64,000 nucleotides of DNA, taken from an uncultured Actinomycetota bacterium. Its GTDB lineage: Bacteria; Actinomycetota; Acidimicrobiia; Acidimicrobiales; Bog-793. A program made the translations under genes and the position numbers. Location of the stretch: assembly GCA_963735115.1 (NCBI GenBank), contig CAVTJR010000003.1, forward strand, positions 1,352,641 through 1,416,640, in the 5' to 3' direction. Shown here piece after piece: positions 50,632-63,730 of this stretch. A model generated the notes under the pieces. It did not search any database and was not told the DNA's origin. It saw only the letters and a program-made list of their open reading frames with translations. How positions within the stretch are numbered: position 1 is the first letter of the stretch; each line of letters begins with the position of its first letter.

Positions 50632-50805
50632 ATGGGAGCCGGCACCGTCGGGCGCACCGACGGCGTCGACCCTTCCAGCATGGCACATCGACCGAGGGTG
50701 AAAAAAGCAACCGGCTGCGGCGCCGGTCGCGTCCCAACCAGCTTGTGGGCACCGAATTCCCAGCATCCCGGGTATGCCGCACCCCTCGTTACCTACGTGC
50801 CAAAC

Positions 50806-50834
50806 TTGACCGCTTCGCCTGCTTCGCCTAATTT
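50806..50834 (+). promoter_or_regulatory. Candidate sigma70-type promoter of the pst operon
   Basis: TTGACC (50806-50811), a 17-nt spacer, then TAATTT (50829-50834), about 58 nt before the GTG start. The spacer is a tandem GCTTCGCCT GCTTCGCC repeat, and the region is locally AT-richer. Confidence 0.3.
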
Positions 50835-50892
50835 CATAGTTTCAGTAGCAAATCAGGCCGTGCCCGACGGCCGCCGACAAAGGAGATACAGC

Positions 50893-52179
50893 GTGCCGAA
50901 TCAACGACGCCGCCGAGCGCGGGCCGGTCTCATCGGGGGGGTCTCGGTGCTGGCAGCGGTTGCCTGCATGAGCCTCACCGGCCTCGTAACGGCGAGCGCA
51001 TCCAACCTGCCGCCAGGTAACACCGTCATCATCGGAAGCGGATCACAGACCGCTTACAGCTTGATGACCGGCCTCGACGACCTCTTCAACTCCTCGCAAG
51101 GCTGCAACGAGATCGCCGCCGCCGGAACCTCCGAGGTCCAGTCGTTGAGCTTCAACTGTGCAGCCGGTCCTGCCGGCGCGGTCGGCTTGCCCGCCGCCAA
51201 CGGCGAGAACCCCCTCAATGACGTCGCCCTGCAGGAGCCGCCTCTCGGCGGTTCGAATGGCCTGAAGCAGCTCGAAGGGCAAGTTCCCGTGCTCGGGACC
51301 GAACCGATCAGCTTCGCCACGACGGTGCGAAACCCAACCGCCTCTGATCCGCAGGGCCTCAACTTCGTGAACTACGCCGACGACGCCATCTCCTGGTTCC
51401 ATTTCACCAAGGTGGGCAAGAAGGCGACCCCGTCGGCGAAGATCAAGTCGCTCACGATCTTGCAGCTGGAGAACATCTGGCTCGGGAACATCACCAACTG
51501 GAAGTCGCTCGGCGGCAAAAGCGCTCCCATCAAGGTGTACGTCACGAACTCGGGCTCAAGCTTGCTGACCATCTGGAATACCAGTCTCGGGAACATCAAC
51601 TCCCAGACGTACCCGGAGACAGAAGGTCCCTCCTACGTCATCGAGCAGAACGAGGACGCTTCGATCATCAAGAACGGCAACGAGGCTGACGCCATCTTCT
51701 TCTTCTCTCGCGGCCGCTTCCTGCAGACTTGTGACGAAGGCACCTGTGGTGGCTCGCGAATCCCTGGCGGTGGTACCACCGCCCTCGGCGAGATCAACGG
51801 GGTCAAACTCACCAACGCCAACATCTTGAGCGGCTTGTGGCCCGTCCGGGTCTTCCTGTCGAACGTGTACTCGGACGGCTCGAACTCCAAGATCCCGGCC
51901 GCCAACCAGGCGACGCTCAACTACGTGAGCGAAGACGGTTTCTTGTGCAAGTCGCAAACGTCCCACGGCAAGCGCATCCTCGACCCGCTCACAGGCGTGT
52001 GGTACCGCACCGAGATCGACAACCTCATCGCCGCCGATGGCTTCGTCCCGATACCGATCGGCTCAGAAGGGCTCGTCACGAACCCCGCAGTGCCCGGCTC
52101 GCCCTACAGCGGATACGACTCTTCCGGCAGCGACCCGAGGGGCTACTGCAAGGTGAGCACGACGGACGGGAACGCCTGA
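50893..52179 (+). CDS. PstS-like (PBP_like_2) substrate-binding protein, atypical
   Basis: AAAGGAG lies upstream of GTG 50893. The signal-like N-terminal part is RRRRARAGLIGGVSVLAAVACMSLTG. The body reads VIIGSGSQTAY...ADDAISWFHF...LTILQLENIWLGNITNWKSLGG...VTNSGSS. Codon usage looks AT-richer than in neighbouring genes. Confidence 0.75.
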   Translation: MPNQRRRRARAGLIGGVSVLAAVACMSLTGLVTASASNLPPGNTVIIGSGSQTAYSLMTGLDDLFNSSQGCNEIAAAGTSEVQSLSFNCAAGPAGAVGLPAANGENPLNDVALQEPPLGGSNGLKQLEGQVPVLGTEPISFATTVRNPTASDPQGLNFVNYADDAISWFHFTKVGKKATPSAKIKSLTILQLENIWLGNITNWKSLGGKSAPIKVYVTNSGSSLLTIWNTSLGNINSQTYPETEGPSYVIEQNEDASIIKNGNEADAIFFFSRGRFLQTCDEGTCGGSRIPGGGTTALGEINGVKLTNANILSGLWPVRVFLSNVYSDGSNSKIPAANQATLNYVSEDGFLCKSQTSHGKRILDPLTGVWYRTEIDNLIAADGFVPIPIGSEGLVTNPAVPGSPYSGYDSSGSDPRGYCKVSTTDGNA

Positions 52180-52213
52180 TCTCGACATCACAGCGACCAG
52201 GTGCGCAACTTCG

Positions 52214-52250
52214 CCCGGGTTCGGCTCTCTCCCTCGGAGCCGAATCCGGG
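52214..52250 (+). terminator. Intercistronic hairpin after the first pstS-like gene (attenuator or processing candidate)
   Basis: CCCGGGTTCGGCTC ... GAGCCGAATCCGGG form a 14-bp stem with one mismatch. More stems follow: CTCCGGCC/GGCCGGAG near 52396-52417 and CTGTCG/CGACAG just after. Confidence 0.4.
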
Positions 52251-52447
52251 CGACCGCACTGAGCAAGTGGAGGATCGAACATTCGAATCGCCTACAACCG
52301 AGCGGGACTCCCGCTGAACCTGAGGAAAGCGGGCTTTGCCGGTGGCGGGACTCGAGAATCCGGACTGATGAAAGCCACATTGCACCGAGCGACACTCCGG
52401 CCGAGGACGGCCGGAGCTGTCGCGTTGAAACGACAGTCGAGAGACGC

Positions 52448-53461
52448 TTGAGCAAGAGCACTGAGATGACCCCAGAAGGTGATGGCAGGTCGAGCGGACG
52501 GGACACGGCGGCGATGCCGCGGCCGGTCACGAGCGAGCACCGCTTGGACGATCGCCTGTTTCGCGGGGGCACGCGGAGCGTCGGACTTGCTGTCTTCGGG
52601 CTCTTGTTCGCCATCGGTGCCTTCCTGTTGTGGAAGTCCATGCCGGCCTTCGACAAGAACGGCCTCATCAGCTTTCTCACGACGACCGGCTTCACTACGA
52701 GCGGCGTCGCCCATCCGGTCTTCGGCGTGGCCGCCCTCCTCTTCTGGACAGTCGTCATCGCCCTCATCGCCGCCGTGATCGGTGTCCCCATCGCCGTCGG
52801 CACTGCGCTGTTCATCGTCGAATTCGCCCCGGCGCGGCTCCGACGCGTCCTCATCGCCGTAATCGACCTGCTGGCGGTCGTTCCCTCGATCATCTTCGGG
52901 CTGTGGGGAGTGTTCTTCCTGCAACCCCGGATGGTGGGCTTCGAGCAGTTCCTCTCCGCTCACCTGAGCTTCATCCCCATCTTCGCCACGACCTCGGCCG
53001 TGCTGAAAGGATCGGCATTCATCGCCGGCACGGTCGTTGGGATCATGATCGTGCCCATCGTCACCTCGATCACTCGCGAGATCTTCTCCCTCGCGCCGCA
53101 AGGAGAGCGAGAGGCGGCGCTCGCACTCGGCGCCAGCAAGGCATCGATGATCCGGGCCGTCGTGCTGCCGTTCGGACGCGGCGGCATGATCGGGGCGGTC
53201 ATGCTCGGGATCGGGCGGGCGATGGGAGAGACCGTCGCCGTGGCCACGATCATCTCGACCATCTTCGTCATCAACCCGCACATCTTGCAGGTGGGCGCCA
53301 ACTCGATCGCGGCCTTCATCGTGCTGCGCTTCGGAGCAGGCGGACCGCTTGGCTTGTCGGCGCTGATGGGGATCGGCTTCGTGCTCTTCTGCTTCACGTT
53401 GCTCGTGAACCTGGCTGCGTCCTTCATCGTGAACCGCTCGCGCACCGGAGCGAGCGCCTGA
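52448..53461 (+). CDS. pstC: Phosphate ABC transporter permease PstC
   Basis: The 337-aa polytopic protein reads ...REIFSLAPQGEREAALALGASKASMIRAVVLPFGRGGMIGAVMLGIGRAMGET.... Confidence 0.9.
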   Translation: MSKSTEMTPEGDGRSSGRDTAAMPRPVTSEHRLDDRLFRGGTRSVGLAVFGLLFAIGAFLLWKSMPAFDKNGLISFLTTTGFTTSGVAHPVFGVAALLFWTVVIALIAAVIGVPIAVGTALFIVEFAPARLRRVLIAVIDLLAVVPSIIFGLWGVFFLQPRMVGFEQFLSAHLSFIPIFATTSAVLKGSAFIAGTVVGIMIVPIVTSITREIFSLAPQGEREAALALGASKASMIRAVVLPFGRGGMIGAVMLGIGRAMGETVAVATIISTIFVINPHILQVGANSIAAFIVLRFGAGGPLGLSALMGIGFVLFCFTLLVNLAASFIVNRSRTGASA

Positions 53462-54606
53462 TGTCGATCGCCACACTCGAGAGAGCCGGGGCCACACCGC
53501 CCAACGAGCAGCCGAGCCCTCGCGACCTCCACCGGCGACGTCCCCGCCAATTCACCGGCACGGATCTCGTCGTGCTCGTCTCCTCGGCTCTGGCAGCAAT
53601 CAGCTTCGTGTGGATCGTCTTCTACCAGCTGACGCTGCTGGCCGGCGGCTCCGGCTTCGTGATCTGTGCCCTGCTGTCGTTCCTCGTCATCTACTACCTT
53701 GCGAATCGCAGCCTTTTCGGCCACATGGCGGCCGTCAATCGCGTGATCGGGGCGCTCGTGACCTCGAGCGCAGTCGCAGTCACCATCGCCCTCGCCCTCG
53801 TCGTGGTCTTCCTCGTCTCGCGCGGCTATCACCTCATCAGCCTGCACTTCCTGACCCACGACCAGGGTGACGTCACCCAGACGGCGCCGGCGAGCGCCGG
53901 TGGCGTCAGCCACGCGATCGTGGGCACGCTCGAACAGGTCGGTCTGGCAGTCGTCATCGGCGCCCCGGCAGGCATCATCACCGCCATCTTCATCAACGAG
54001 GTCGGCGGCCGCGTCACCTCCCTCGTGCGCACGGTCGTCACGGCCATGAGCGCCTTGCCGACGATCGTGGCCGGGTTGTTCATCTACGTCATCTACATCT
54101 CAGCCACCCATCACGGCTTCTCAGGCCTCGCCGGCTCCCTCGCATTGTCGATCATGCTGCTCCCGAACGTCACCCGCACCACTGAGGAGGTGCTGAAAGT
54201 CGTGCACGGGTCGCTGCGGGAGGCCTCCATGGCTCTCGGTGCACCGCAATGGCGGACCGTCTGGTCCGTCGTTCTGCCGACGGCGCGCGCCGGCATCGCC
54301 ACGGCGGTGCTGCTCGGCATCGCCCGCATCGTCGGAGAGACGGCCCCGCTGATCGTGACGATCTTCGGCAGCACCTTCATGCAGACGAACCCTCTGCATG
54401 CTCAAGAAGCCCTTCCCTTGTTCATCTGGCAGAGCTATGGCCTCCCCCGCCAGGCGGACATCGAGCGCGCCTTCGCCGCCGGCCTCGTCCTCGTCGGCCT
54501 CGTCCTCATCCTGTTCGTCCTCGCCCGTCTCGTCGCCTCCATCCGCCCGGGGGCGGTCCACCGCATGGTCACGAGGCTGCGCCCGAGCCGTCTGGAGGCA
54601 TCGTGA
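53461..54606 (+). CDS. pstA: Phosphate ABC transporter permease PstA (long N-terminal region)
   Basis: ATG 53461 overlaps the pstC stop (TGATG). The sequence reads ...TEEVLKVVHGSLREASMALGAPQWRTVWSVVLPTARAGIATAVLLGIARIVGETAPL.... Confidence 0.9.
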   Translation: MSIATLERAGATPPNEQPSPRDLHRRRPRQFTGTDLVVLVSSALAAISFVWIVFYQLTLLAGGSGFVICALLSFLVIYYLANRSLFGHMAAVNRVIGALVTSSAVAVTIALALVVVFLVSRGYHLISLHFLTHDQGDVTQTAPASAGGVSHAIVGTLEQVGLAVVIGAPAGIITAIFINEVGGRVTSLVRTVVTAMSALPTIVAGLFIYVIYISATHHGFSGLAGSLALSIMLLPNVTRTTEEVLKVVHGSLREASMALGAPQWRTVWSVVLPTARAGIATAVLLGIARIVGETAPLIVTIFGSTFMQTNPLHAQEALPLFIWQSYGLPRQADIERAFAAGLVLVGLVLILFVLARLVASIRPGAVHRMVTRLRPSRLEAS

Positions 54607-55457
54607 GCACGACCGAAGACTTCGTCTCTTCCGGCACCCTCTCGTCCCCCTACGACTCGGCGGCGCCCGCGGCCGCCTCGCACGCCTCCGAGCTCGTGGC
54701 CGAGGACGTCTCGGCCTGGTTCGGCGGCCACCTCGTCTTGGAGCGGGTGAGCCTTTCGATGGAGCGCTCCAAGGTGACGGCCCTCATCGGGCCTTCCGGC
54801 TGTGGCAAGTCGACGTTCTTGCGCATCTTGAACCGCATGCACGAGGTCGTGCCCGGGGCCGAGCTCGGCGGCCGGGTGCTCCTGGAGGGCGAAGACGTCT
54901 ACGGGCCGCAGATGCGCGCCACCGAGGTGCGCAAGCAAATCGGCATGGTCTTCCAGAAGCCCAACCCCTTCCCCGCCATGACCATCGAGCACAACGTGCT
55001 CGCCGGCCTGCGCTTTGCCGGCACGAAGGTGCGCGCCGCCGACCGCCGTGAGCTCGTGCAGGAGATGCTCGTGAAGGCCGGCCTGTGGAACGAGGTGCGC
55101 AACCGCCTCTCCGCCCTCGGGGGCGAGCTCTCCGGTGGCCAGCAGCAGCGCCTCTGCATCGCGCGGGCCCTGGCGGTGCGCCCGAACGTCTTGTTGATGG
55201 ACGAGCCCTGCTCGGCCCTCGACCCCACCTCCACGCGGCGCATCGAGGAGACGATCCGCGAGATCGCCGACGACGTCACCGTCGTCATCGTCACCCACAA
55301 CATGCAGCAGGCCCAGCGGGTGAGCCACGCCTGCGCCTTCTTCCTGGCGGCCGAGAACCAGCCGGGCCGCATCGTCGAGTCCGGCACGACCGAGCAGATC
55401 TTCGAGAGCCCGAGCGACGAGAGGACGGCGGACTATGTCCATGGGCGCTTCGGCTGA
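54603..55457 (+). CDS. pstB: Phosphate ABC transporter ATP-binding protein PstB
   Basis: GTG 54603 overlaps the pstA stop (GTGA). Motifs are GPSGCGKSTFLR (Walker A), LSGGQQQRLCIARA (signature), LLMDEPCSALDP (Walker B) and ...ADYVHGRFG. Confidence 0.95.
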   Translation: MSTTEDFVSSGTLSSPYDSAAPAAASHASELVAEDVSAWFGGHLVLERVSLSMERSKVTALIGPSGCGKSTFLRILNRMHEVVPGAELGGRVLLEGEDVYGPQMRATEVRKQIGMVFQKPNPFPAMTIEHNVLAGLRFAGTKVRAADRRELVQEMLVKAGLWNEVRNRLSALGGELSGGQQQRLCIARALAVRPNVLLMDEPCSALDPTSTRRIEETIREIADDVTVVIVTHNMQQAQRVSHACAFFLAAENQPGRIVESGTTEQIFESPSDERTADYVHGRFG

Positions 55458-57193
55458 GGGCTCGGCCGCGGCCGGCGGCCTCTCCCGCGGGATCGGTTGC
55501 GATCTCGCTCCTGGCGGCTCTGGCATTCGTGACCGTGTCGGCTCAGAGCGTCGGCATGACCCGGGCGCTCGCAGCCGGTCCGGAGGTCACCGGCGCAGGC
55601 TCGAGCTACGCCGCGCTCGCCATCAACAACTGGGACGCTCAGATCTCCACGGTCTACGGAGACACCGTCGACTACAGCACGTCCTCCTCCGTCATCGGCC
55701 TCAACCTGTTCGCCCAGAACCAGGTGACCTTCGGTGCCTCCGAGATCGGCTACTCGACCGGGCAAGCCAACTACACGCCCACGACGCCCTACCAGTACCT
55801 GCCCGACATCGCCGGGGCGACGTGCCTCATGTACAACGTCAAAGGCCGGCTGGGCAACCAGGTTCGATCGCTCAACCTCGACTCGCGGGTCCTGGCAGAG
55901 ATCTGGACGGGCACGATCACGAAGTGGGACGACCCAGCCATCGCCGCCATCAACCGAGGTGTCGACCTGCCGAACGCGCCCATCATCGCCGTCTTTCGCA
56001 CCGATGCGTCCGGGGAGAATTACGTCTTCTCCCAGTACCTCGACTACCTGCAGCCCGCCATCTGGGTGCCTTTCGTGAAGGCACTTCAGGCCGGCTCGCC
56101 CGTGAGCGCCGACTTCCCGCAGGGCAGCAGCAGCTCCCGCCGGTACCACCTCTCCAACTTCTTCGGTCAGAGCGGATCGGACGGCACCTCTGACCTCGTC
56201 GCCAGCACGAACGACGCCGTCACCTATGTCGAGACCGGCTATGCCATCTTGCACCACATGCCGTGCGCCTACGTGGAGAACGCCAGCCACAACTGGGTGC
56301 AGCCCTCGGAGGAGACCGACGCCGTCGGACTCGAGCGCGCCGAGCTGCTCCCCGACCTCGAGCAGAAGCTGCAAGGCGTCTACTCGAACCCGCTCCCGAG
56401 CGCCTACCCGATCTCCGCCTACAGCTACCTCATCACGCCCAAGGGCCCTGGTTCGATGTCGCCGGCGGAAGGGGCCGTCCTCGGCCAGTACATCCGCTTC
56501 TTCGCCTGCACGGGTCAGCAATCGGCCGGAACGCTCGGGTACTCGCCTCTTCCGCCCAACCTCGTTGACGCCGACTTCGCCGCCATCAACCGCATCCCCG
56601 GCGCAGCCAGAGCGCCGGCCGCCGCCACGGCGGCGAACTGTCCGGATCCATATGTCGACGGCCAAACCGTCCTCCCGGGCGAACCCTGCATCGTCGGGCA
56701 GCCCTGCCACTCCTCGGGCGGCGGCACGACGCCTCCGACCACGTTGCCCACCGCCACCATCACGACGACCACGACGGCGCCCACCAGCGGTGTCCCTCAC
56801 CACAAATCGGGCGGCTCCAAGCGCCACAACGCCGGCCACACCAAGCCAGCTCGCTCAGGTCAGCACTACGGCGGGGGCGGGAGCAGCGGCAGCGGGGGCG
56901 GCGGGACGACGAAGCCCGGGTCTCCGTCGCTCGCCAACGGACAATGGCCGGGCAAGAAGATCGTCCCTGGGGCGCAGCCGGGTGCCAACCTGCCGAATGG
57001 GCAGACCCTCGGCAATGAGCTCGCCACAGAGGACTTCACGTTGCTCGGTGTGAGAGTCTCGCCCGCGACGATGTGGGGCTCGGTCGCCTTGCTGATCCTC
57101 CTTCTCGCCGTCCCGCCCACCCTGGCCCGCGTGCGCAGGCGCCGGAAGCTCGGTCGCTTGGCCACGACGGACTCTCGTGGAGCTCGACAATGA
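55454..57193 (+). CDS. pstS: PstS-type phosphate-binding protein with a Thr-rich stalk, Gly/basic tract and C-terminal TM anchor
   Basis: The sequence reads GAGSSYAALAINNWDAQIS...FGASEIGYS...LAEIWTGTITKWDDPAI...TDASGENYVFSQYL. The C-terminal part is TTPPTTLPTATITTTTTAPT...GGGGSSGSGGGGTT...WGSVALLILLLAVPPTLARVRRRRK. The start is inferred as CTG 55454 overlapping the pstB stop (CTGA), because the frame has no ATG, GTG or TTG before the signal peptide. Confidence 0.75.
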   Translation: MRARPRPAASPAGSVAISLLAALAFVTVSAQSVGMTRALAAGPEVTGAGSSYAALAINNWDAQISTVYGDTVDYSTSSSVIGLNLFAQNQVTFGASEIGYSTGQANYTPTTPYQYLPDIAGATCLMYNVKGRLGNQVRSLNLDSRVLAEIWTGTITKWDDPAIAAINRGVDLPNAPIIAVFRTDASGENYVFSQYLDYLQPAIWVPFVKALQAGSPVSADFPQGSSSSRRYHLSNFFGQSGSDGTSDLVASTNDAVTYVETGYAILHHMPCAYVENASHNWVQPSEETDAVGLERAELLPDLEQKLQGVYSNPLPSAYPISAYSYLITPKGPGSMSPAEGAVLGQYIRFFACTGQQSAGTLGYSPLPPNLVDADFAAINRIPGAARAPAAATAANCPDPYVDGQTVLPGEPCIVGQPCHSSGGGTTPPTTLPTATITTTTTAPTSGVPHHKSGGSKRHNAGHTKPARSGQHYGGGGSSGSGGGGTTKPGSPSLANGQWPGKKIVPGAQPGANLPNGQTLGNELATEDFTLLGVRVSPATMWGSVALLILLLAVPPTLARVRRRRKLGRLATTDSRGARQ

Positions 57194-59577
57194 GCCGGCT
57201 GGCGCGCCTGCTTGCCGCTGCCGGCCTGGCAACGCTCGCGATCGCAGGACTGACGCTCGGGGCGACAGCGGCGCGGGCAACCCCGATGGGCGGTGCTGCC
57301 GGCGCCCGATCTGGGGCGACGCCGAAGCGGGCGTGTGCCCCCGGCGCCACCTGCGTGACGATCCCCTCCCCGTGTCCGTCCGGGTCGAGGTGCCCGACGG
57401 TGTCCGTAGAGCCGTCGAACGGCCTCGGCCAGAACCAGTGGATCTACCTGAATTTCTCCGACTTCGCCGCCGGAAGCGTCGCCCAGATTTACTACTGCGA
57501 GAACCAGACGCCGCTCACCGCCACCAGCCCGCCCTACTGCGTCCTCGAGGGCACGCCCACCTTCACCTACCCCAACCAGGAGCTCCCGATCTCGGCGAAC
57601 GGCAGCGGGGCGATGAGCTTCCAGACGCTCGACGACCCCAACGTGGCGGGTGACACCGCCCTCGTCGGTCAGATCCCGGGCGACACGACGGCGCCGCCGC
57701 AGAACTTCTATTGCGGCGACACCGCCGACCAGTGCTCGGTCGACGTCGTCGACTGGTCGCTCCTGAGCTCGCCGCGTCCGAGCAACATCGCCATCCCACT
57801 GCCGTCTGACACGGCCGTCATCCCGCTCGGATTCGCCCCACAGAGCAACGGCTGCCAGCAGGCGACGTTGGTGTCGACCTTCAGCGACAACAGCATCGAA
57901 TGGCTCATCCCGCACGAGTCGCCGGTCGTGTGCAAACAACAGCATGCCGCCGTCGCACTGAACACCTCCACGAGCACGTCGTTGATCCTGGGCTCGCTGC
58001 AAAACGGCAACGTCGTGTTCCTGGACGATCCGCAGGCGGCCGATGTGCGGGCGGCGCTCTCCAAGGTCCATTACGCCGTCGTACCGGTCGTGGCCTCTGC
58101 CGTCGTCATGGGATACGTCGCCGCCATGGAACAGCAAGGCCTCAGCTACCCGTTCAACGACTTCCGCCTGACGCCCAACGAAGTGGCCGGACTTGTCACC
58201 TATGCCTATCAGGGCCCTTACGACGGCGACCTCGTGAAATGCAAGGGCGGTCCGTGCTCCGCCCTGCAGGGCCTGAACTCCGTCCGGGGCTTCGTGGGCG
58301 CCGGCCAGTACGGGGTATTCATCCCCTCGGAGACAACAAGTGTCACCGAGACAATCACGAACTGGGTGTGCAACGCCCCAAACGTTCCCTTCGTGCTGAA
58401 CGGCAAGCTCATCACGGACCCGAACAGCGCCCAGAAGACGTTCACGACCTCGGTCAACCAGCGCCCGTGGCCGATCACCAGATGCACGACCTTCGACCAA
58501 TTCCCGGCGCTCAAGCCCTTTGCGACCTTGTTCGAGCAGGCGGCCGACCCGATCCATGCCGTGAAGTACCTCCGCACCTTCGCCGTCCCGCCCCAGTTCC
58601 AGCCCTCGCCCGTGGCAGGGTTCGCACCCATCGACTGGGGAGACGCCCGTTACTACGGCCTCGACGCTGCTGCCTTGCAGAACGCCGCCGGACAGTTCAT
58701 CGCCCCCAGCACGGCCTCGGTGCAGGCCGAGATAGCGGCCGAGCCTCTCTCGAACGCCGGCTACCCCCTTCCGGACGCCAAGCTGCGCGTGAGGGGCGGC
58801 TACCCGATGTCGACGGTCATCGACGCACTCGTGCCGGAAGGCCCGCTCCCAGCTACCCAATCGAAACCCATCGCCCAGATGATGACCGATCTCCTCGACT
58901 ACACGACGACGGCGCCCCTACCCGACGGCTATGTCCGGCTGCCGGCAAAGCTGAGGGCCCTCGCCCACCGGGAGCTCACGAACGCCCTGGAAGCTGAGAC
59001 GGGGGCGGTGACGAGGACGCGCGCCTTGATCCGGCCGACGTCGGTGACGCAGGGACACCCCGTCAGATACGTGGCGAAGGTGTCGTCAGCCCGCCGCAGC
59101 CCGACGGGGAACGTGACGTTCACGACGGGAGCGACAACGCTCTGCAGCGCCCAGCTGACAAGGGGGAGGGCGGCGTGCACGGCCTCGGACGCCCCGGTCG
59201 GCTTCGACAACGTGACGGCAAGCTACGCAGGTACCGTCAGTTTCGGTCCTTCGGTGGCCACGGCCACGCTCGACGTCTCGGCCCCTCCCCCGCCGCCTAC
59301 GACCGTCGTGACGGTCACCACGATGCCGCCGCGTTCGCGGACGACCACCACGACGACGACGGTGCGCTCGACCGTGCCCTCGACGGTGCCGTCCAAGGCC
59401 AAGGGGTCCGGCCCGAGCACGCTGTCGGTCGCCGACGTCAGGCTGGCGGCCGCAGCCGACAGCGTCGCCCTCCCGATTGCGCTCGCGGCGGGAGGGGCCT
59501 TGATCGCACTCAGTCTCGGACTGTCCTTCGTCGGAGTCCTTCGACGTCGCCACGCAGGTCGTACCGAGGGTGCCTGA
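57190..59577 (+). CDS. Large Cys-rich secreted protein with a PstS-like-looking core, Ig-like segment, Pro/Thr stalk and C-terminal TM anchor
   Basis: ATG 57190 overlaps the upstream stop (ATGA). The signal is MSRLARLLAAAGLATLAIAGLTLGATAARA. An Ig-like stretch reads GNVTFTTGATTLCSAQL...ASYAGTVSFGPS. The C-terminal part is PPPPPTTVVTVTT...TTTTTTTV... then ALPIALAAGGALIALSLGLSFVGVLRRRH. Confidence 0.7.
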   Translation: MSRLARLLAAAGLATLAIAGLTLGATAARATPMGGAAGARSGATPKRACAPGATCVTIPSPCPSGSRCPTVSVEPSNGLGQNQWIYLNFSDFAAGSVAQIYYCENQTPLTATSPPYCVLEGTPTFTYPNQELPISANGSGAMSFQTLDDPNVAGDTALVGQIPGDTTAPPQNFYCGDTADQCSVDVVDWSLLSSPRPSNIAIPLPSDTAVIPLGFAPQSNGCQQATLVSTFSDNSIEWLIPHESPVVCKQQHAAVALNTSTSTSLILGSLQNGNVVFLDDPQAADVRAALSKVHYAVVPVVASAVVMGYVAAMEQQGLSYPFNDFRLTPNEVAGLVTYAYQGPYDGDLVKCKGGPCSALQGLNSVRGFVGAGQYGVFIPSETTSVTETITNWVCNAPNVPFVLNGKLITDPNSAQKTFTTSVNQRPWPITRCTTFDQFPALKPFATLFEQAADPIHAVKYLRTFAVPPQFQPSPVAGFAPIDWGDARYYGLDAAALQNAAGQFIAPSTASVQAEIAAEPLSNAGYPLPDAKLRVRGGYPMSTVIDALVPEGPLPATQSKPIAQMMTDLLDYTTTAPLPDGYVRLPAKLRALAHRELTNALEAETGAVTRTRALIRPTSVTQGHPVRYVAKVSSARRSPTGNVTFTTGATTLCSAQLTRGRAACTASDAPVGFDNVTASYAGTVSFGPSVATATLDVSAPPPPPTTVVTVTTMPPRSRTTTTTTTVRSTVPSTVPSKAKGSGPSTLSVADVRLAAAADSVALPIALAAGGALIALSLGLSFVGVLRRRHAGRTEGA

Positions 59578-60550
59578 CGCGAGGCTCACCAAAGAGTCGC
59601 CACTCGTAGAAGACGTGCCTGACGCCCTTCCTGCCGAGGAAGCCACTGATGACGGCGAACCGGTTACGACCAGCTCCAGCGTGCCGGCGGGGACGGACTC
59701 CCGCAGGGGGCGCCGACGCCACCAGCCAGGCTCCATCGTCTTCACGGCTGCGGTCATCACCGCCGGCATGGGCCTTCTCGTGGCGGGCTTCGCCGTCTAC
59801 CTGTTCGGCTTCACGAGCCTGGAGGCCTTCCACGCCCAGCATCGCCTCGCTGAGCAGTTGGCCGGCTCGGCCGGCCTGGCCGCCCTCAATGGCACGACAC
59901 CGCCCGAAGGCGAGGCTGTCGCCATCCTCGACATCCCCACGATCGGGATCCGCCAAGTCGTGGTGGAGGGTACGTCGTCAGAGGATCTGGAAGCGGGCCC
60001 CGGCCTCTTGATCGGTTCCGCGCCGCCGGGGACGGGCGGCGACGTCGTCATCGCCGGGCGGCGCACGACCTACGGCTCCCCCTTCGCGCGCCTCGACCGG
60101 CTGAAGAACGGCGACACGGTCATCCTCACGGGTGCGCTCGGGGAATTCCGCTACACGGTGTCGACGACGCGGGTCGTCCGTCCCGGGTCCCCACTGCCGG
60201 CGAGCCCGACCAGCGCCGGCCGGTTGACGCTCGTCACCTCGACACCGGCTGTGGAGGCGTCGTCCCTCCTCGTCGTTACGGCCGATCTCGCCGGCAAGCC
60301 CGTCGCCTCCGTGCCGCTCAGCGACGCGGCGCTTCCCTCCACGCAATTCGGTCTGGCGGGCGACGGCGCCGCCGTGGCTCCGGCCATCGGCTGGGGCGGT
60401 GCCCTCATCGGCGTTCTTCTCTGTGCCTGGTACCTGTTGCGCAGGTCGAGAAAGACGTGGCTCGTCTACGGACTGGCAACCCCGATCGTGATCGCCGCTG
60501 CGATCCTCTGCTACGCCAACGTGGCGGCGCTGTTGCCTGCGACGTTGTGA
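59570..60550 (+). CDS. Class E sortase-fold membrane protein lacking the His/Cys/Arg catalytic triad
   Basis: It has an N-terminal TM helix. The sequence reads GEAVAILDIPTIGIRQVVVEGTSSEDLEAGPG...DVVIAGRRTTYGSPFARLDRLKNGD (sortases have AGHR here)...RLTLVTSTP (sortases have TLxTC)...SLLVVTADL (no Arg). Two additional C-terminal TM helices follow. Confidence 0.8.
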   Translation: MPDARLTKESPLVEDVPDALPAEEATDDGEPVTTSSSVPAGTDSRRGRRRHQPGSIVFTAAVITAGMGLLVAGFAVYLFGFTSLEAFHAQHRLAEQLAGSAGLAALNGTTPPEGEAVAILDIPTIGIRQVVVEGTSSEDLEAGPGLLIGSAPPGTGGDVVIAGRRTTYGSPFARLDRLKNGDTVILTGALGEFRYTVSTTRVVRPGSPLPASPTSAGRLTLVTSTPAVEASSLLVVTADLAGKPVASVPLSDAALPSTQFGLAGDGAAVAPAIGWGGALIGVLLCAWYLLRRSRKTWLVYGLATPIVIAAAILCYANVAALLPATL

Positions 60551-61083
60551 ACCCCGCCTTCGGCGGCGCGCCCAGCCGCTCGCACGGGCGGCGGCGCCTG
60601 GCGCTCGCCGCGGCCATCGCCGCGGTGTGCTTCGGCACCGGTGCCTGCTCCTCCGGCTCGAGGGCTGCTTCGTCGCCCCACGAGAGCACGACCTCCTCGA
60701 GGGTGCCCTCGAGCTCGACCGTCACTATGACAACGGTGCGCTATTCGGGATACGTGACCATCAAGGGCAAGAAGGTCGGCATCCCGGAGGAAGGCACGAC
60801 TCCGATCAGCCTGGTCGAGAACGTCGGCGAGCAGATCATCATCACGCCGAGCCGCATCGAGCCACACCTCCTCTTCGCCCAGGTCGACTACCGACTGACG
60901 TTCACGAACCTGACGTCGGCTCCCCAGCGGCTGCGTTTCGTGAACGACGGCAACTGGCGCTCACCCGCTATCCCGCCCGGCGGGACGTGGCACTACACGC
61001 CCCGCGACGGCATCTCCTACTACTTCGTCACCAGCACCGGGCTGCAGGCAACGTTCCAGGCATCCCCCGCCGGCGCCCCGTAG
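60547..61083 (+). CDS. Lipoprotein with a small beta-sandwich (cupredoxin-like?) domain
   Basis: GTG 60547 overlaps the upstream stop (GTGA). The signal plus lipobox is LALAAAIAAVCFGTGACSSG, followed by an S/T linker. The domain reads ...LTFTNLTSAPQRLRFVNDGNWRSPAIPPGGTWHYTP... The fold assignment is tentative. Confidence 0.65.
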   Translation: MNPAFGGAPSRSHGRRRLALAAAIAAVCFGTGACSSGSRAASSPHESTTSSRVPSSSTVTMTTVRYSGYVTIKGKKVGIPEEGTTPISLVENVGEQIIITPSRIEPHLLFAQVDYRLTFTNLTSAPQRLRFVNDGNWRSPAIPPGGTWHYTPRDGISYYFVTSTGLQATFQASPAGAP

Positions 61084-61092
61084 TCGGCCGGC

Positions 61093-61599
61093 TCAACCCG
61101 AGGCGACGGCCGCCCGCACGGCCTCCACGTCGCGGTGCATCTGCTCGATCAGCTGCTGGCTGTCGTCAAAACGCCCCTGGCCCCGCACGATGTGCCCTAC
61201 ACCCAGCCGCACGCGCTCCCCGTAGAGATCACCGTCGAAGTCGAGCAGGTACGCCTCAACGAGCCGGGCGCCCCCTTCGCCATAGTACGTAGGCCGCGTA
61301 CCCACCGAGATGGCCGCCACGAAACGACTGCCGTCCGCCCGCTCGAACCAGCCGGCGTAGACGCCATCGGCCGGGAGCACGCTGGTGCCGGGCACTTCGA
61401 CGTTCGCCGTCGGGAAGCCGAGCTCCCTCCCCCGCCCGTCGCCGTGCACGACCACACCTTCGAGCACGAGCTCCTCACCGTCGAGCACCGCCTTCGAGGC
61501 TACCGTCCCTCGACTGCCCGCTATCGTCCCGACCGTGCCCGGGAGCCGACCACTGTCACATGATCGAGACCTCGGTTCCCTGCCCGAGACCGTCGTCAT
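61093..61599 (-). CDS. Riboflavin kinase domain protein (monofunctional, no FAD synthetase domain)
   Basis: The sequence reads GVVVHGDGRGRELGFPTANVEV...DGVYAGW...ISVGTRPTY...VEAYLLDFDGDLYGERVRL. The real start is probably internal (for example GTG 61503). Confidence 0.8.
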   Translation of the reverse strand: MTTVSGREPRSRSCDSGRLPGTVGTIAGSRGTVASKAVLDGEELVLEGVVVHGDGRGRELGFPTANVEVPGTSVLPADGVYAGWFERADGSRFVAAISVGTRPTYYGEGGARLVEAYLLDFDGDLYGERVRLGVGHIVRGQGRFDDSQQLIEQMHRDVEAVRAAVASG

Positions 61600-62623: not shown

Positions 62624-63730
62624 TTGGAGCAAGAGCGGTCGAGCTTCCGGGCCCGCATGACCGACCACCTCCCCATAGCCGTCGGCACGACCCATGGGCT
62701 CTTCTTCGTGAGTGACGGCATCGCCGACGGCCCGTTCTTCAAGGGCAGCCGGGTGCCGGCCTTCTTACAGGTGGGGGTTCGCTACTACGCCGCTACCGTC
62801 GACCCGGGCGGGCGGTCGGCCTTGCAGACGAGCGACGACGACGGGCAGAGCTGGAGCACCCAGGGCACGTCGGTCACCTTCCCGGACGATATCGGCGCCA
62901 CCGTGGCGCAGATATGCCAAATTCAACCCGACCACGCCTCACCGCCCTCGGCGGGCAGATCCGCCCTCCTCGTGGGCGTCGAGCCGGCGGCACTCTTCCG
63001 CTCCAGCGACGGCACGAGCTTCGAGCTCCTACGCGGCCTCTGGAACCATCCGGATCGCCCGGTCTGGCAGGCGGAAGCTGGCGGTGGACTCGACACGGTG
63101 CTGACCCATCAAGATCGGCCAGGCAGGATCATCGTCGCCATCGCCGCCGGAGGTGTCTACCGCTCCGACGACGACGGGCAGACCTGGCTGGCGCGAAATG
63201 GTGGCATCGCCGTGCGCCCGGCTGACGTGTGGAGCGGCCCCCGGCGGCGTGTTCACAAGCTGGCCTTGGACGCTGCAAGCCCGGACTCGCTCTTCGCGCA
63301 GACTAATACCGGCACCTATCACTCCGACAACGCCGGCGACAGCTGGACCCGAGTAGGTCGAGTCGAGGAGGAGGATGGCCTCGCCTCGGACTTTGGGTTT
63401 CCCGTCGTTGCCCACCCGGTGGAGCCGGGCACGGCCTTCGTGTTCCCGCTCGAGTCTGAGTCGTACCCCTGCAGTCCCGAGGGTCGCCCCCGCGTCTACC
63501 GTACGACCGACGGCGGTGCCCACTGGGGGATGCTCGACGACGGTCTGCCGCGTGAGAATGCCCACGTGACAGTCCTTCCCGATGCCTTCACGATCGGCCA
63601 GAGCTCTCCGTACCCCCTCGTGTTCGGCACGAAGGCAGGGCAGCTGTTCGCCTCCCTCGACCATGGCGACAGCTGGCGACTGTTCGCCTGGGGGCTTCCG
63701 CCAGTGCTCTGCCTCCGCCTCCTCGAGTAG
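62624..63730 (+). CDS. BNR/Asp-box repeat beta-propeller protein (sialidase-like / Ycf48-like fold)
   Basis: Five Asp-box motifs (SxDxGxxW) are present: SDDDGQSW, SDDDGQTW, SDNAGDSW, TTDGGAHW and SLDHGDSW. Confidence 0.8.
   Translation: MEQERSSFRARMTDHLPIAVGTTHGLFFVSDGIADGPFFKGSRVPAFLQVGVRYYAATVDPGGRSALQTSDDDGQSWSTQGTSVTFPDDIGATVAQICQIQPDHASPPSAGRSALLVGVEPAALFRSSDGTSFELLRGLWNHPDRPVWQAEAGGGLDTVLTHQDRPGRIIVAIAAGGVYRSDDDGQTWLARNGGIAVRPADVWSGPRRRVHKLALDAASPDSLFAQTNTGTYHSDNAGDSWTRVGRVEEEDGLASDFGFPVVAHPVEPGTAFVFPLESESYPCSPEGRPRVYRTTDGGAHWGMLDDGLPRENAHVTVLPDAFTIGQSSPYPLVFGTKAGQLFASLDHGDSWRLFAWGLPPVLCLRLLE

Follow-up and report, generated by a model that had tools for sequence, protein, structure and literature searches.

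A pseudo-sortase encoded beside PstS-type proteins with C-terminal membrane anchors in an actinobacterial pst operon

Sortases are treated as cysteine transpeptidases. Class E sortases, for example SrtE1 and SrtE2 of Streptomyces coelicolor, possess a β-barrel and a membrane anchor, and a tyrosine in their β3/β4 loop has been proposed to read the alanine of the LAXTG signal (PMC5148588). In a 64-kb stretch of DNA of an uncultured bacterium of the Acidimicrobiales (contig CAVTJR010000003.1; the whole stretch is referred to as the window), a pst operon extends into a gene set, the cassette, which encodes a sortase homolog of this type that has lost its catalytic residues, termed the pseudo-sortase here, and, directly upstream of it, two PstS-type proteins, PstS2 and a protein of 795 amino acids (aa). 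Both proteins end in a stalk, a hydrophobic helix, and a basic tail, as the clients of class E sortases do, but lack LAXTG and LPXTG. We favor, with a probability of roughly 0.5, the interpretation that the tails are permanent membrane anchors and the pseudo-sortase is their non-catalytic partner; the partnership is the part of this reading that we infer. Searches of the full-text literature retrieved no description of inactive sortases, of Cys-less sortase homologs, or of a sortase linked to pst, and the gene set, which is present in dozens of actinobacterial species, has apparently not been described before.

The second group of related proteins comprises the PstS binding proteins of PstSCAB transporters, such as PstS of Escherichia coli and PstS1 to PstS3 of Mycobacterium tuberculosis. 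The presence of several PstS paralogs in one pstSCAB operon is a feature shared with mycobacterial pst operons. PstS2 of the window can be aligned with PstS proteins from end to end, including the motifs GAGSSY and RTDASGxxxxFSxYL, and the 795-aa protein shares their fold. The PstS proteins of Actinobacteria are lipoproteins with a lipidated N-terminus (PMC2605767, Streptomyces). PstS2 and the 795-aa protein differ in being anchored by a C-terminal transmembrane (TM) helix behind a long stalk, and the 795-aa protein additionally contains neocarzinostatin-like and immunoglobulin (Ig) domains and reaches 21 bits with the PstS hidden Markov model (HMM).

The oligopeptide-class binding proteins of Sulfolobus consist of a signal peptide, a binding domain, an S/T-rich linker, and a C-terminal TM anchor. 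This layout is the same as in the anchored PstS paralogs, although in a different domain of life (Archaea), and we know of neither a sortase-like partner gene nor comparable conserved tail motifs in these archaeal proteins. The exosortase/PEP-CTERM, archaeosortase/PGF-CTERM, and rhombosortase/GlyGly-CTERM systems share with the present locus a short motif, a TM helix, and a basic cluster, which are inherited together with a dedicated membrane protein. They differ in that their HMMs miss the tails studied here, that the partner protein of the window is derived from a sortase and devoid of catalytic residues, and that the tail motifs are located at both ends of the helix. Finally, the iRhoms and Derlins are pseudo-proteases of the rhomboid superfamily that keep client binding. 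The resemblance, a dead branch of a membrane enzyme family genetically tied to TM-anchored clients, is an analogy only, because fold, kingdom, and pathway are unrelated and client binding by the pseudo-sortase is a proposal.

Loss of the catalytic sites in the sortase homolog

The pseudo-sortase (326 aa, positions 59570..60550; all features lie on the plus strand unless stated otherwise) was assigned by its match to the Pfam family Sortase, an AlphaFold2 (AF2) model, Foldseek searches, and alignment to a solved class E sortase. It consists of an N-terminal TM helix, the sortase β-barrel, and two C-terminal TM helices, and it terminates in the conserved sequence LLPATL. The AF2 model confidently predicts the bundle of three TM helices and the β-barrel (predicted local distance difference test score, pLDDT, 88.4; predicted template modeling score, pTM, 0.79). 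Foldseek retrieved sortases only. The best structural match was the class D sortase SrtD (4d70, template modeling score TMt 0.83), closely followed by class E (SrtE 5go6, TMt 0.75). By sequence, the closest solved structure and the best HMM are both of class E. The score with the class E HMM NF033747 (84.7 bits) was about half of the cut-off of 160 bits; other members of the pseudo-sortase family scored between 70 and 90 bits and catalytically intact relatives between 188 and 190 bits.

In the alignment with SrtE of Streptomyces avermitilis (5go6), the catalytic His is replaced by Arg, the Cys by Ser, and the Arg by Leu. The His site lies in the motif AGRR (60047-60076), which corresponds to AGHR in SrtE, and the Cys site in LTLVTS (60224-60241), corresponding to TLxTC. 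Among 120 homologs, the His site is occupied by Arg in 110, Lys in two, and His in eight sequences. The Cys site is more variable (Ser 95, Ala 8, Thr 6, Cys 6, Met 2, Gly 1, and two gapped); in the loci from the Genome Taxonomy Database (GTDB), it is Ser, Thr, Ala, or Gly depending on the clade. The third catalytic residue, Arg, is gone in about half of the family, the window protein included. The class E tyrosine has been lost as well. The window protein has GPGLL in place of the GPGHY of active relatives, so that Leu occupies the position of the Tyr by alignment; judging from the sequence, the Tyr of GPGHY probably corresponds to Tyr229 of SrtE1. The Tyr of GxGHY is kept in 10 of 112 Arg-type sequences compared with six of the eight His-type sequences, the other two having LL or LM, which amounts to a loss in approximately 90% of the family. 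E133, T135, and T223 are the only invariant polar residues that stand out, and the motifs containing them are also present in the aligned solved and class E sortases.

Since the replacements extend over the whole family, in which at least 112 homologs have Arg or Lys in place of the His, they represent a family trait and not the decay of a pseudogene. The protein is a pseudo-enzyme under selection. The first-pass annotation had described it as a catalytically dead sortase; all three catalytic residues are indeed gone, but "dead" is too simple a term for a member of a large, conserved family that is no relic. In public annotations, the protein is named "sortase" or "sortase A", and NCBIfam holds no model specific to the family.

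The C-terminal end of the pseudo-sortase (LLPATL, 60530-60547) is conserved as P-x-x-Φ (Φ, hydrophobic residue) in 113 of the 120 homologs, and its Pro is invariant in an alignment of 93 sequences. The peptide is predicted to be extracellular. The idea that LLPATL-COOH is a built-in mimic of LPXT that arose newly in the pseudo-sortases was dropped, as intact class E relatives end in RLLPAN[IVFY] (39 of 42 sequences). These relatives share the pair of C-terminal TM helices and terminate in a similar way, so that this type of tail is ancestral.

The C-terminal tails of PstS2 and the 795-aa protein

PstS2 (55454..57193) was identified by its score with the PstS model TIGR00975 (195 bits, cut-off 205) and by alignment to solved PstS proteins, which extends along their full length and includes GAGSSY and RTDASGENYVFSQYL. 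The near-threshold score together with the full-length alignment and the retained motifs indicates a PstS protein with a C-terminal extension of about 190 aa. This extension starts with a low-complexity stalk rich in T, P, G, and S (56717..56995), which begins with GGGTTPPTTLPTATITTTTTAPT and is hypervariable among homologs. It is followed by a conserved juxtamembrane segment, NGQTLGNELATEDFTLLGVRVSPAT (56996..57070; family consensus GQxxGxxL......LLGΦPxP[ST]), the TM helix MWGSVALLILLLAVPPTLA (57071..57127, assigned by hydropathy), and the basic cluster RVRRRRK (57128..57148), which is predicted to be cytoplasmic. The motif VPPTL (57110-57124), recognized in the sequence and by family comparison, lies near the cytoplasmic end of the helix. 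Fourteen further residues (LGRLATTDSRGARQ), which the first-pass annotation had not quoted, follow the basic cluster before the frame ends at 57193. A TM segment with a basic cluster, the latter of the RRRR type, is present in 116 of 120 PstS2 relatives. The general pattern of the family is LLGΦPxP, helix, ΦPPΦ, and RRRR. In the 116 tails, a PP dipeptide 4 to 9 aa ahead of the basic cluster occurs 64 times, compared with 3.4 times (maximum 10) in shuffled sequences, and LL[GHRSK]Φ[PSRK]xP ahead of the helix occurs 27 times, compared with 0.2 times.

The start of PstS2 is uncertain. The gene directly follows pstB, and there is no in-frame ATG, GTG, or TTG between 55086 and 55528; the nearest upstream GTG in this frame (55085) is located inside pstB and farther upstream than the signal peptide. 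The best candidate, and the only plausible start, would be the CTG at 55454, which overlaps with the pstB stop as CTGA. This points either to translationally coupled initiation at a rare start codon or to an error in the sequencing or the frame.

The 795-aa protein (57190..59577) was characterized by a match to the Pfam family Big_3_5, a weak PstS match, and AF2 and Foldseek analyses. Its order of domains is signal peptide, Cys-rich neocarzinostatin-like domain, divergent PstS fold, Big_3_5 Ig domain, stalk, and TM anchor. The match to TIGR00975 (21.3 bits) is below the cut-off and covers residues 483-594 only, and Foldseek gave TMt values of 0.68-0.77 to PstS structures; the likeness to PstS is confined to the fold level. 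The overall pLDDT of the AF2 model is 63, with values of 70-90 in the core and below 50 in the stalk. The N-terminal domain (57330-57850, residues ~48-220) contains the invariant cysteines C55, C62, C68, C103, C117, C175, and C182. Foldseek matched this part to the apoproteins of neocarzinostatin, macromomycin, and C-1027 (TMt 0.66-0.77), and a weak NCBIfam match to the enediyne chromoprotein family was also obtained. The domain may be a small-molecule-binding module fused to the PstS fold.

The tail of the 795-aa protein resembles that of PstS2 in its layout. A P/T-rich stalk (59284..59421), which varies among homologs, precedes the juxtamembrane motif LSVADVRLAAAADSVALP (59422..59475). This motif ends with Leu761-Pro762, both conserved to at least 90%, and the helix edge in the window reads ...SVALP-IAL... 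The TM helix IALAAGGALIALSLGLSFVGVL (59476-59541; assigned by hydropathy, and a helix of residues 760-788 in the AF2 model) is followed by the basic cluster RRRHAGR (59542-59562), which is conserved in homologs. The large-protein family comprises 164 representatives at E < 1e-30, and a TM segment with a basic cluster was found in 105 of 152 relatives. Among 88 tails that are non-redundant at 50% identity, [RKW]ΦΦΦP is present at the outer helix edge in 46 (shuffled 3.2, maximum 10) and GPxΦ near the inner helix end in 32 (shuffled 3.3), the general pattern of this family being [RKW]ΦΦΦP...GPxΦ...RRRR.

The first-pass annotation had proposed that both proteins end in a stalk, a TM helix, and an Arg cluster, and that these ends are degenerate sorting signals. 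The layout was confirmed: the quoted sequences are present in the window, hydropathy analysis identified a single C-terminal TM segment in each protein (peaks 2.0-2.2), and the arrangement is common to the homologs of both families (116/120 and 105/152), so that it is no chance feature of one genome. The reported absence of the pentapeptides also stood. A regular-expression scan detected neither LPXTG nor LAXTG in either C-terminus, and the isolated tails matched no C-terminal sorting-signal model of NCBIfam or Pfam at E ≤ 10, including TIGR01167, PF00746, PEP-CTERM, and GlyGly-CTERM. By contrast, the strings LPNGQ and LATED, which had been named as the nearest approximations, do not occupy the position of a sorting motif. 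They are part of the conserved juxtamembrane segment of PstS2 (NGQxxGxxLAxxxxxLLGV), and the conserved elements that had been missed are ALP of the large protein (761-762) and VPPTL in front of the PstS2 Arg cluster.

The comparison of orthologs that had been suggested did reveal conserved tail motifs, but they are not of the sorting-signal type. In the tails of the large proteins, LPxT was observed seven times (5.3 expected from shuffles) and the generic ΦPxxΦ (LPxxΦ type) 64 times (57.5 expected), which is the chance level in both cases, and the interpretation of these strings as a degenerate LPXTG was dropped. The sequence LPATG itself occurs in a single homolog, P0139, where it is located at the outer helix edge; the tail of P0139 scored 12.9 with LPXTG_anchor (cut-off 15.9), and P0139 also adjoins a pseudo-sortase. 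As the conserved motifs differ from sorting signals, LPxT does not exceed the shuffle level, and none of 80 loci with active relatives of the pseudo-sortase contains a pst cassette, the view of the tails as degenerate LAXTG signals is unsupported, though not disproved. The best reading, derived from comparison of the sequences, is that the tails would be conserved anchor modules with motifs of their own. In both families, these motifs sit beside hypervariable stalks, which points to a specific binding partner.

Gene order, distribution, and catalytically intact relatives

The cassette was reached from three independent entries, namely matches to the pseudo-sortase, one match to the large protein, and two matches to PstS2 that were chosen only as long contigs. 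In all long contigs with intact gene calls, a PstS2 (PBP_like_2, 530-590 aa), a large protein (600-930 aa), and the sortase homolog were present in this order; the small protein encoded next in the window followed in most of them, and pstS-C-A-B was located upstream in most. The cassette region of L004, L005, and L007 is fragmented or frameshifted. The four upstream pst genes precede the cassette in L001, L007, L050, L051, and L052; in L006, pstB-pstC-pstA lies upstream and no upstream PstS is shown. With a restrictive DNA pattern (IAGRR...LTLVT), which gave 42 matches including two false ones (L028, L045), the pseudo-sortase was detected in 40 GTDB species. The carriers belong to the Acidimicrobiaceae, other Acidimicrobiales, and Pseudonocardiaceae, and include one Mycobacterium metagenome-assembled genome (MAG) and unclassified Actinomycetota. 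Directly upstream of the pseudo-sortase, about 25 of the 31 evaluable GTDB loci, as assessed by reading, encode a protein that has a TM helix and a basic tail. Together with the gene order in the long contigs, this corroborates the earlier proposal that the inactive sortase is inherited along with the anchored proteins. A reduced form consisting of PstS2 with its PP tail and the pseudo-sortase, without the large protein, occurs in three Pseudonocardiaceae loci (L011, L027, L032). In this family, the pseudo-sortases have Thr at the Cys site and end in LPN[LIV]L.

Relatives with intact catalytic residues (AGHR, TLTTC, and Arg) are abundant, with at least 598 metagenome matches. They show the same architecture of one N-terminal and two C-terminal TM helices, end in ...FENxxRLLPANΦ, and pass the class E cut-off. 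None of the 80 loci with such relatives (L053-L132) contained PstS, PstC, PstA, the large protein, or the small protein. The pst-linked pseudo-sortases thus represent a paralogous offshoot of the class E sortases. An ancestral cassette composed of an active sortase and a PstS protein bearing LAXTG was looked for in the same 80 loci and not found. A weakly PstB-like ABC ATPase open reading frame (ORF; 24-34% identity) is located nearby in 52 of them and makes up a conserved neighborhood; among the longer loci listed, 38 of 39 have this ORF upstream and in the opposite orientation.

In the window, the G+C content of the region is high (0.63-0.70), and public data contain identical proteins labeled as Acidimicrobiales MAG. 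The proposed operon has the order pstS-pstC-pstA-pstB, PstS2, large PstS-like protein, pseudo-sortase, and small lipoprotein, and hence encodes three PstS-type proteins, two of which are C-terminally anchored. The upstream pst genes (together 50632..55457) comprise the gene of the first PstS-like protein (50632-52179), pstC (ORF 52448-53461), pstA (ending at 54606), and pstB (ending at 55457), assigned from the ORFs and from Pfam and NCBIfam matches. The first PstS-like protein gave a weak PBP_like_2 match. Its signal peptide has an ASA-type cleavage site and no canonical lipobox, and a C-terminal anchor is absent; judged by its sequence, it would be an unanchored binding protein if the cell is single-membraned, as expected for an actinobacterium.

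Stop and start codons overlap at the junctions of the four distal genes, namely as the candidate CTGA, ATGA at 57190-57193, GTGCCTGA at 59570-59577, and GTGA, which indicates one translationally coupled unit. The overlapping junctions bear out the statement of the first-pass annotation that both anchored proteins are encoded directly upstream of the sortase homolog. The last gene (60547..61083), whose GTG start forms the GTGA overlap with the sortase stop, encodes a small secreted product, a probable lipoprotein of 178 aa. Its signal resembles that of lipoproteins, its linker is rich in T and S, and (V/T)(W/F)TNLT and PPGG(T/S)(F/W) (PPGGTW in the window) are its motifs. Homologs are encoded directly 3' of the pseudo-sortase in L001, L002, L004, L007, L050, L051, and L052, as confirmed by alignment. 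The protein matched no Pfam family, and the sole match of its profile in the Protein Data Bank (PDB) was a weak one (E = 0.0056) to a copper nitrite reductase, in the C-terminal portion of that enzyme. Farther downstream, the cassette is followed in L002 and L003 by a riboflavin-kinase-like gene and a Sortilin-Vps10/BNR-like gene. The window contains ORFs at the matching positions (61093-61599 on the minus strand and 62624-63730 on the plus strand), a correspondence by position only. If these ORFs correspond to the genes of L002 and L003, synteny beyond the cassette is restricted to closer relatives.

Possible role of the pseudo-sortase in membrane anchoring of PstS paralogs

According to the favored interpretation, PstS2 and the 795-aa protein would be exported via their N-terminal signal peptides and retained in the cytoplasmic membrane by the single C-terminal stop-transfer helix and the cytoplasmic Arg cluster, being neither cleaved nor linked to the cell wall. 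The P/T/G/S-rich stalks may serve as spacers that keep the phosphate-binding-type domains off the membrane. The pseudo-sortase, which arose from a class E sortase by loss of the His-Cys(-Arg) machinery and, in most members, of the class E Tyr, with the barrel and the module of three TM helices kept, would bind the juxtamembrane and TM modules as a non-catalytic membrane partner and organize both paralogs at PstCAB. Because it is the sole polytopic membrane protein conserved in the distal cassette and retains a peptide-binding fold, it is the protein that most plausibly binds the tail modules. Uncleaved retention in the membrane, physical contact of the pseudo-sortase with the tails, and a role in phosphate uptake are thus what we infer from protein anatomy, folds, catalytic-residue loss, motif conservation, and synteny.

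Several points weigh against this interpretation. Contact between the pseudo-sortase and the tails is a proposal. The shuffle controls ignore shared descent and mark the motifs as non-random and conserved, not as independent selection events. In the large-protein clade of the window itself, the helix edge ...ALP does not include the Arg of the [RKW]ΦΦΦP motif, and GPxΦ is missing from the inner end. On inspection, the sequence of the 795-aa protein seems to have a degraded phosphate-binding signature, and the check for an active sortase covered 64 kb of the genome. In four Pseudonocardiaceae loci (L012, L014, L024, L047), the upstream neighbor has an Ig-like repeat sequence and no TM tail, which means that the partnership of pseudo-sortase and anchored protein is not universal but varies by lineage.

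These exceptions suit the notion, which we regard as doubtful, that the tails are ordinary stop-transfer anchors that need no partner, and that the pseudo-sortase never touches them and is kept for another role, for example sensing or regulating Pst activity, contacting PstCA, the small lipoprotein, or the unanchored PstS, or a role related to the cell wall. Export by the Sec pathway combined with a C-terminal TM helix is known to need no dedicated factor. Some pseudo-sortases of the Pseudonocardiaceae are encoded without an anchored protein immediately upstream, and intact relatives possess the same module of three TM helices and the same type of C-terminal end, parts that consequently did not evolve for PstS tails. 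Simple anchors, however, would hardly account for tail motifs that are strongly conserved beyond hydrophobicity and charge, nor for the pseudo-sortase being the sole conserved membrane protein of the distal cassette.

An enzymatic fate of the tails appears less probable still. They could be true sorting signals that are cut, with attachment of the proteins to the wall, by an enzyme encoded elsewhere in the genome, either an active housekeeping class E sortase or a different protease, with the pseudo-sortase presenting or regulating the substrates. The tripartite layout would fit cell-wall sorting signals, active class E sortases of the same architecture are abundant in metagenomes, and P0139 carries its literal LPATG at the outer helix edge. 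We nevertheless consider this improbable, because the window proteins have neither LAXTG or LPXTG nor a match to a sorting-signal HMM, LPxT occurs at shuffle frequency across the large-protein family, P0139 itself falls below the LPXTG_anchor cut-off and lies beside a pseudo-sortase, and the window contains no second sortase or LPXTG protein. In addition, PP or GPxΦ at the cytoplasmic end of the helix would be superfluous in a wall-sorting signal. It is even more unlikely that the sortase homolog is still an enzyme of a non-canonical kind, using a Ser or Thr nucleophile together with Arg and cutting the tails at ΦΦΦP or GP[ST]. An almost invariant Arg at the His position, the prevalence of Ser at the Cys position (95/120), and the conservation of the fold and of much of the core sequence would be in accordance with such an activity. 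Many members of the cassette family, however, have Ala, Gly, or Met at the nucleophile position, and this variability (S/T/A/G/M) leaves no conserved nucleophile there and makes a Ser-based mechanism unlikely. About half of the family, with the window protein among them, lacks the third catalytic residue, Arg, and apart from E133, T135, and T223 no alternative invariant polar residue stands out.

The interpretation of the tails as permanent anchors with a non-catalytic sortase-derived partner can be extended to a non-covalent counterpart of sortase sorting, which we put forward only tentatively. In this extended form, the pseudo-sortase would have kept its membrane module and peptide-binding barrel, would recognize both tail modules, and would assemble the tail-anchored PstS paralogs at the Pst transporter. 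It might then be the first bacterial pseudo-transpeptidase to act as a client receptor in nutrient uptake, in the Acidimicrobiia and several other actinobacterial lineages.

The whole cassette is more interesting than the tails alone. Its new element is a pseudo-enzyme branch of the class E sortases with dedicated, tail-anchored clients that do not follow the LPXTG type, and it illustrates that a stalk, a helix, and a basic tail encoded beside a sortase gene are insufficient evidence of wall anchoring. Such a branch would entail corrected annotations for hundreds of "sortase" genes, and the sortase superfamily would gain a pseudo-enzyme. Acidimicrobiia are abundant in soil and water and largely uncultured. 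The cassette would indicate how these bacteria display several PstS paralogs for phosphate scavenging without lipoprotein anchors.

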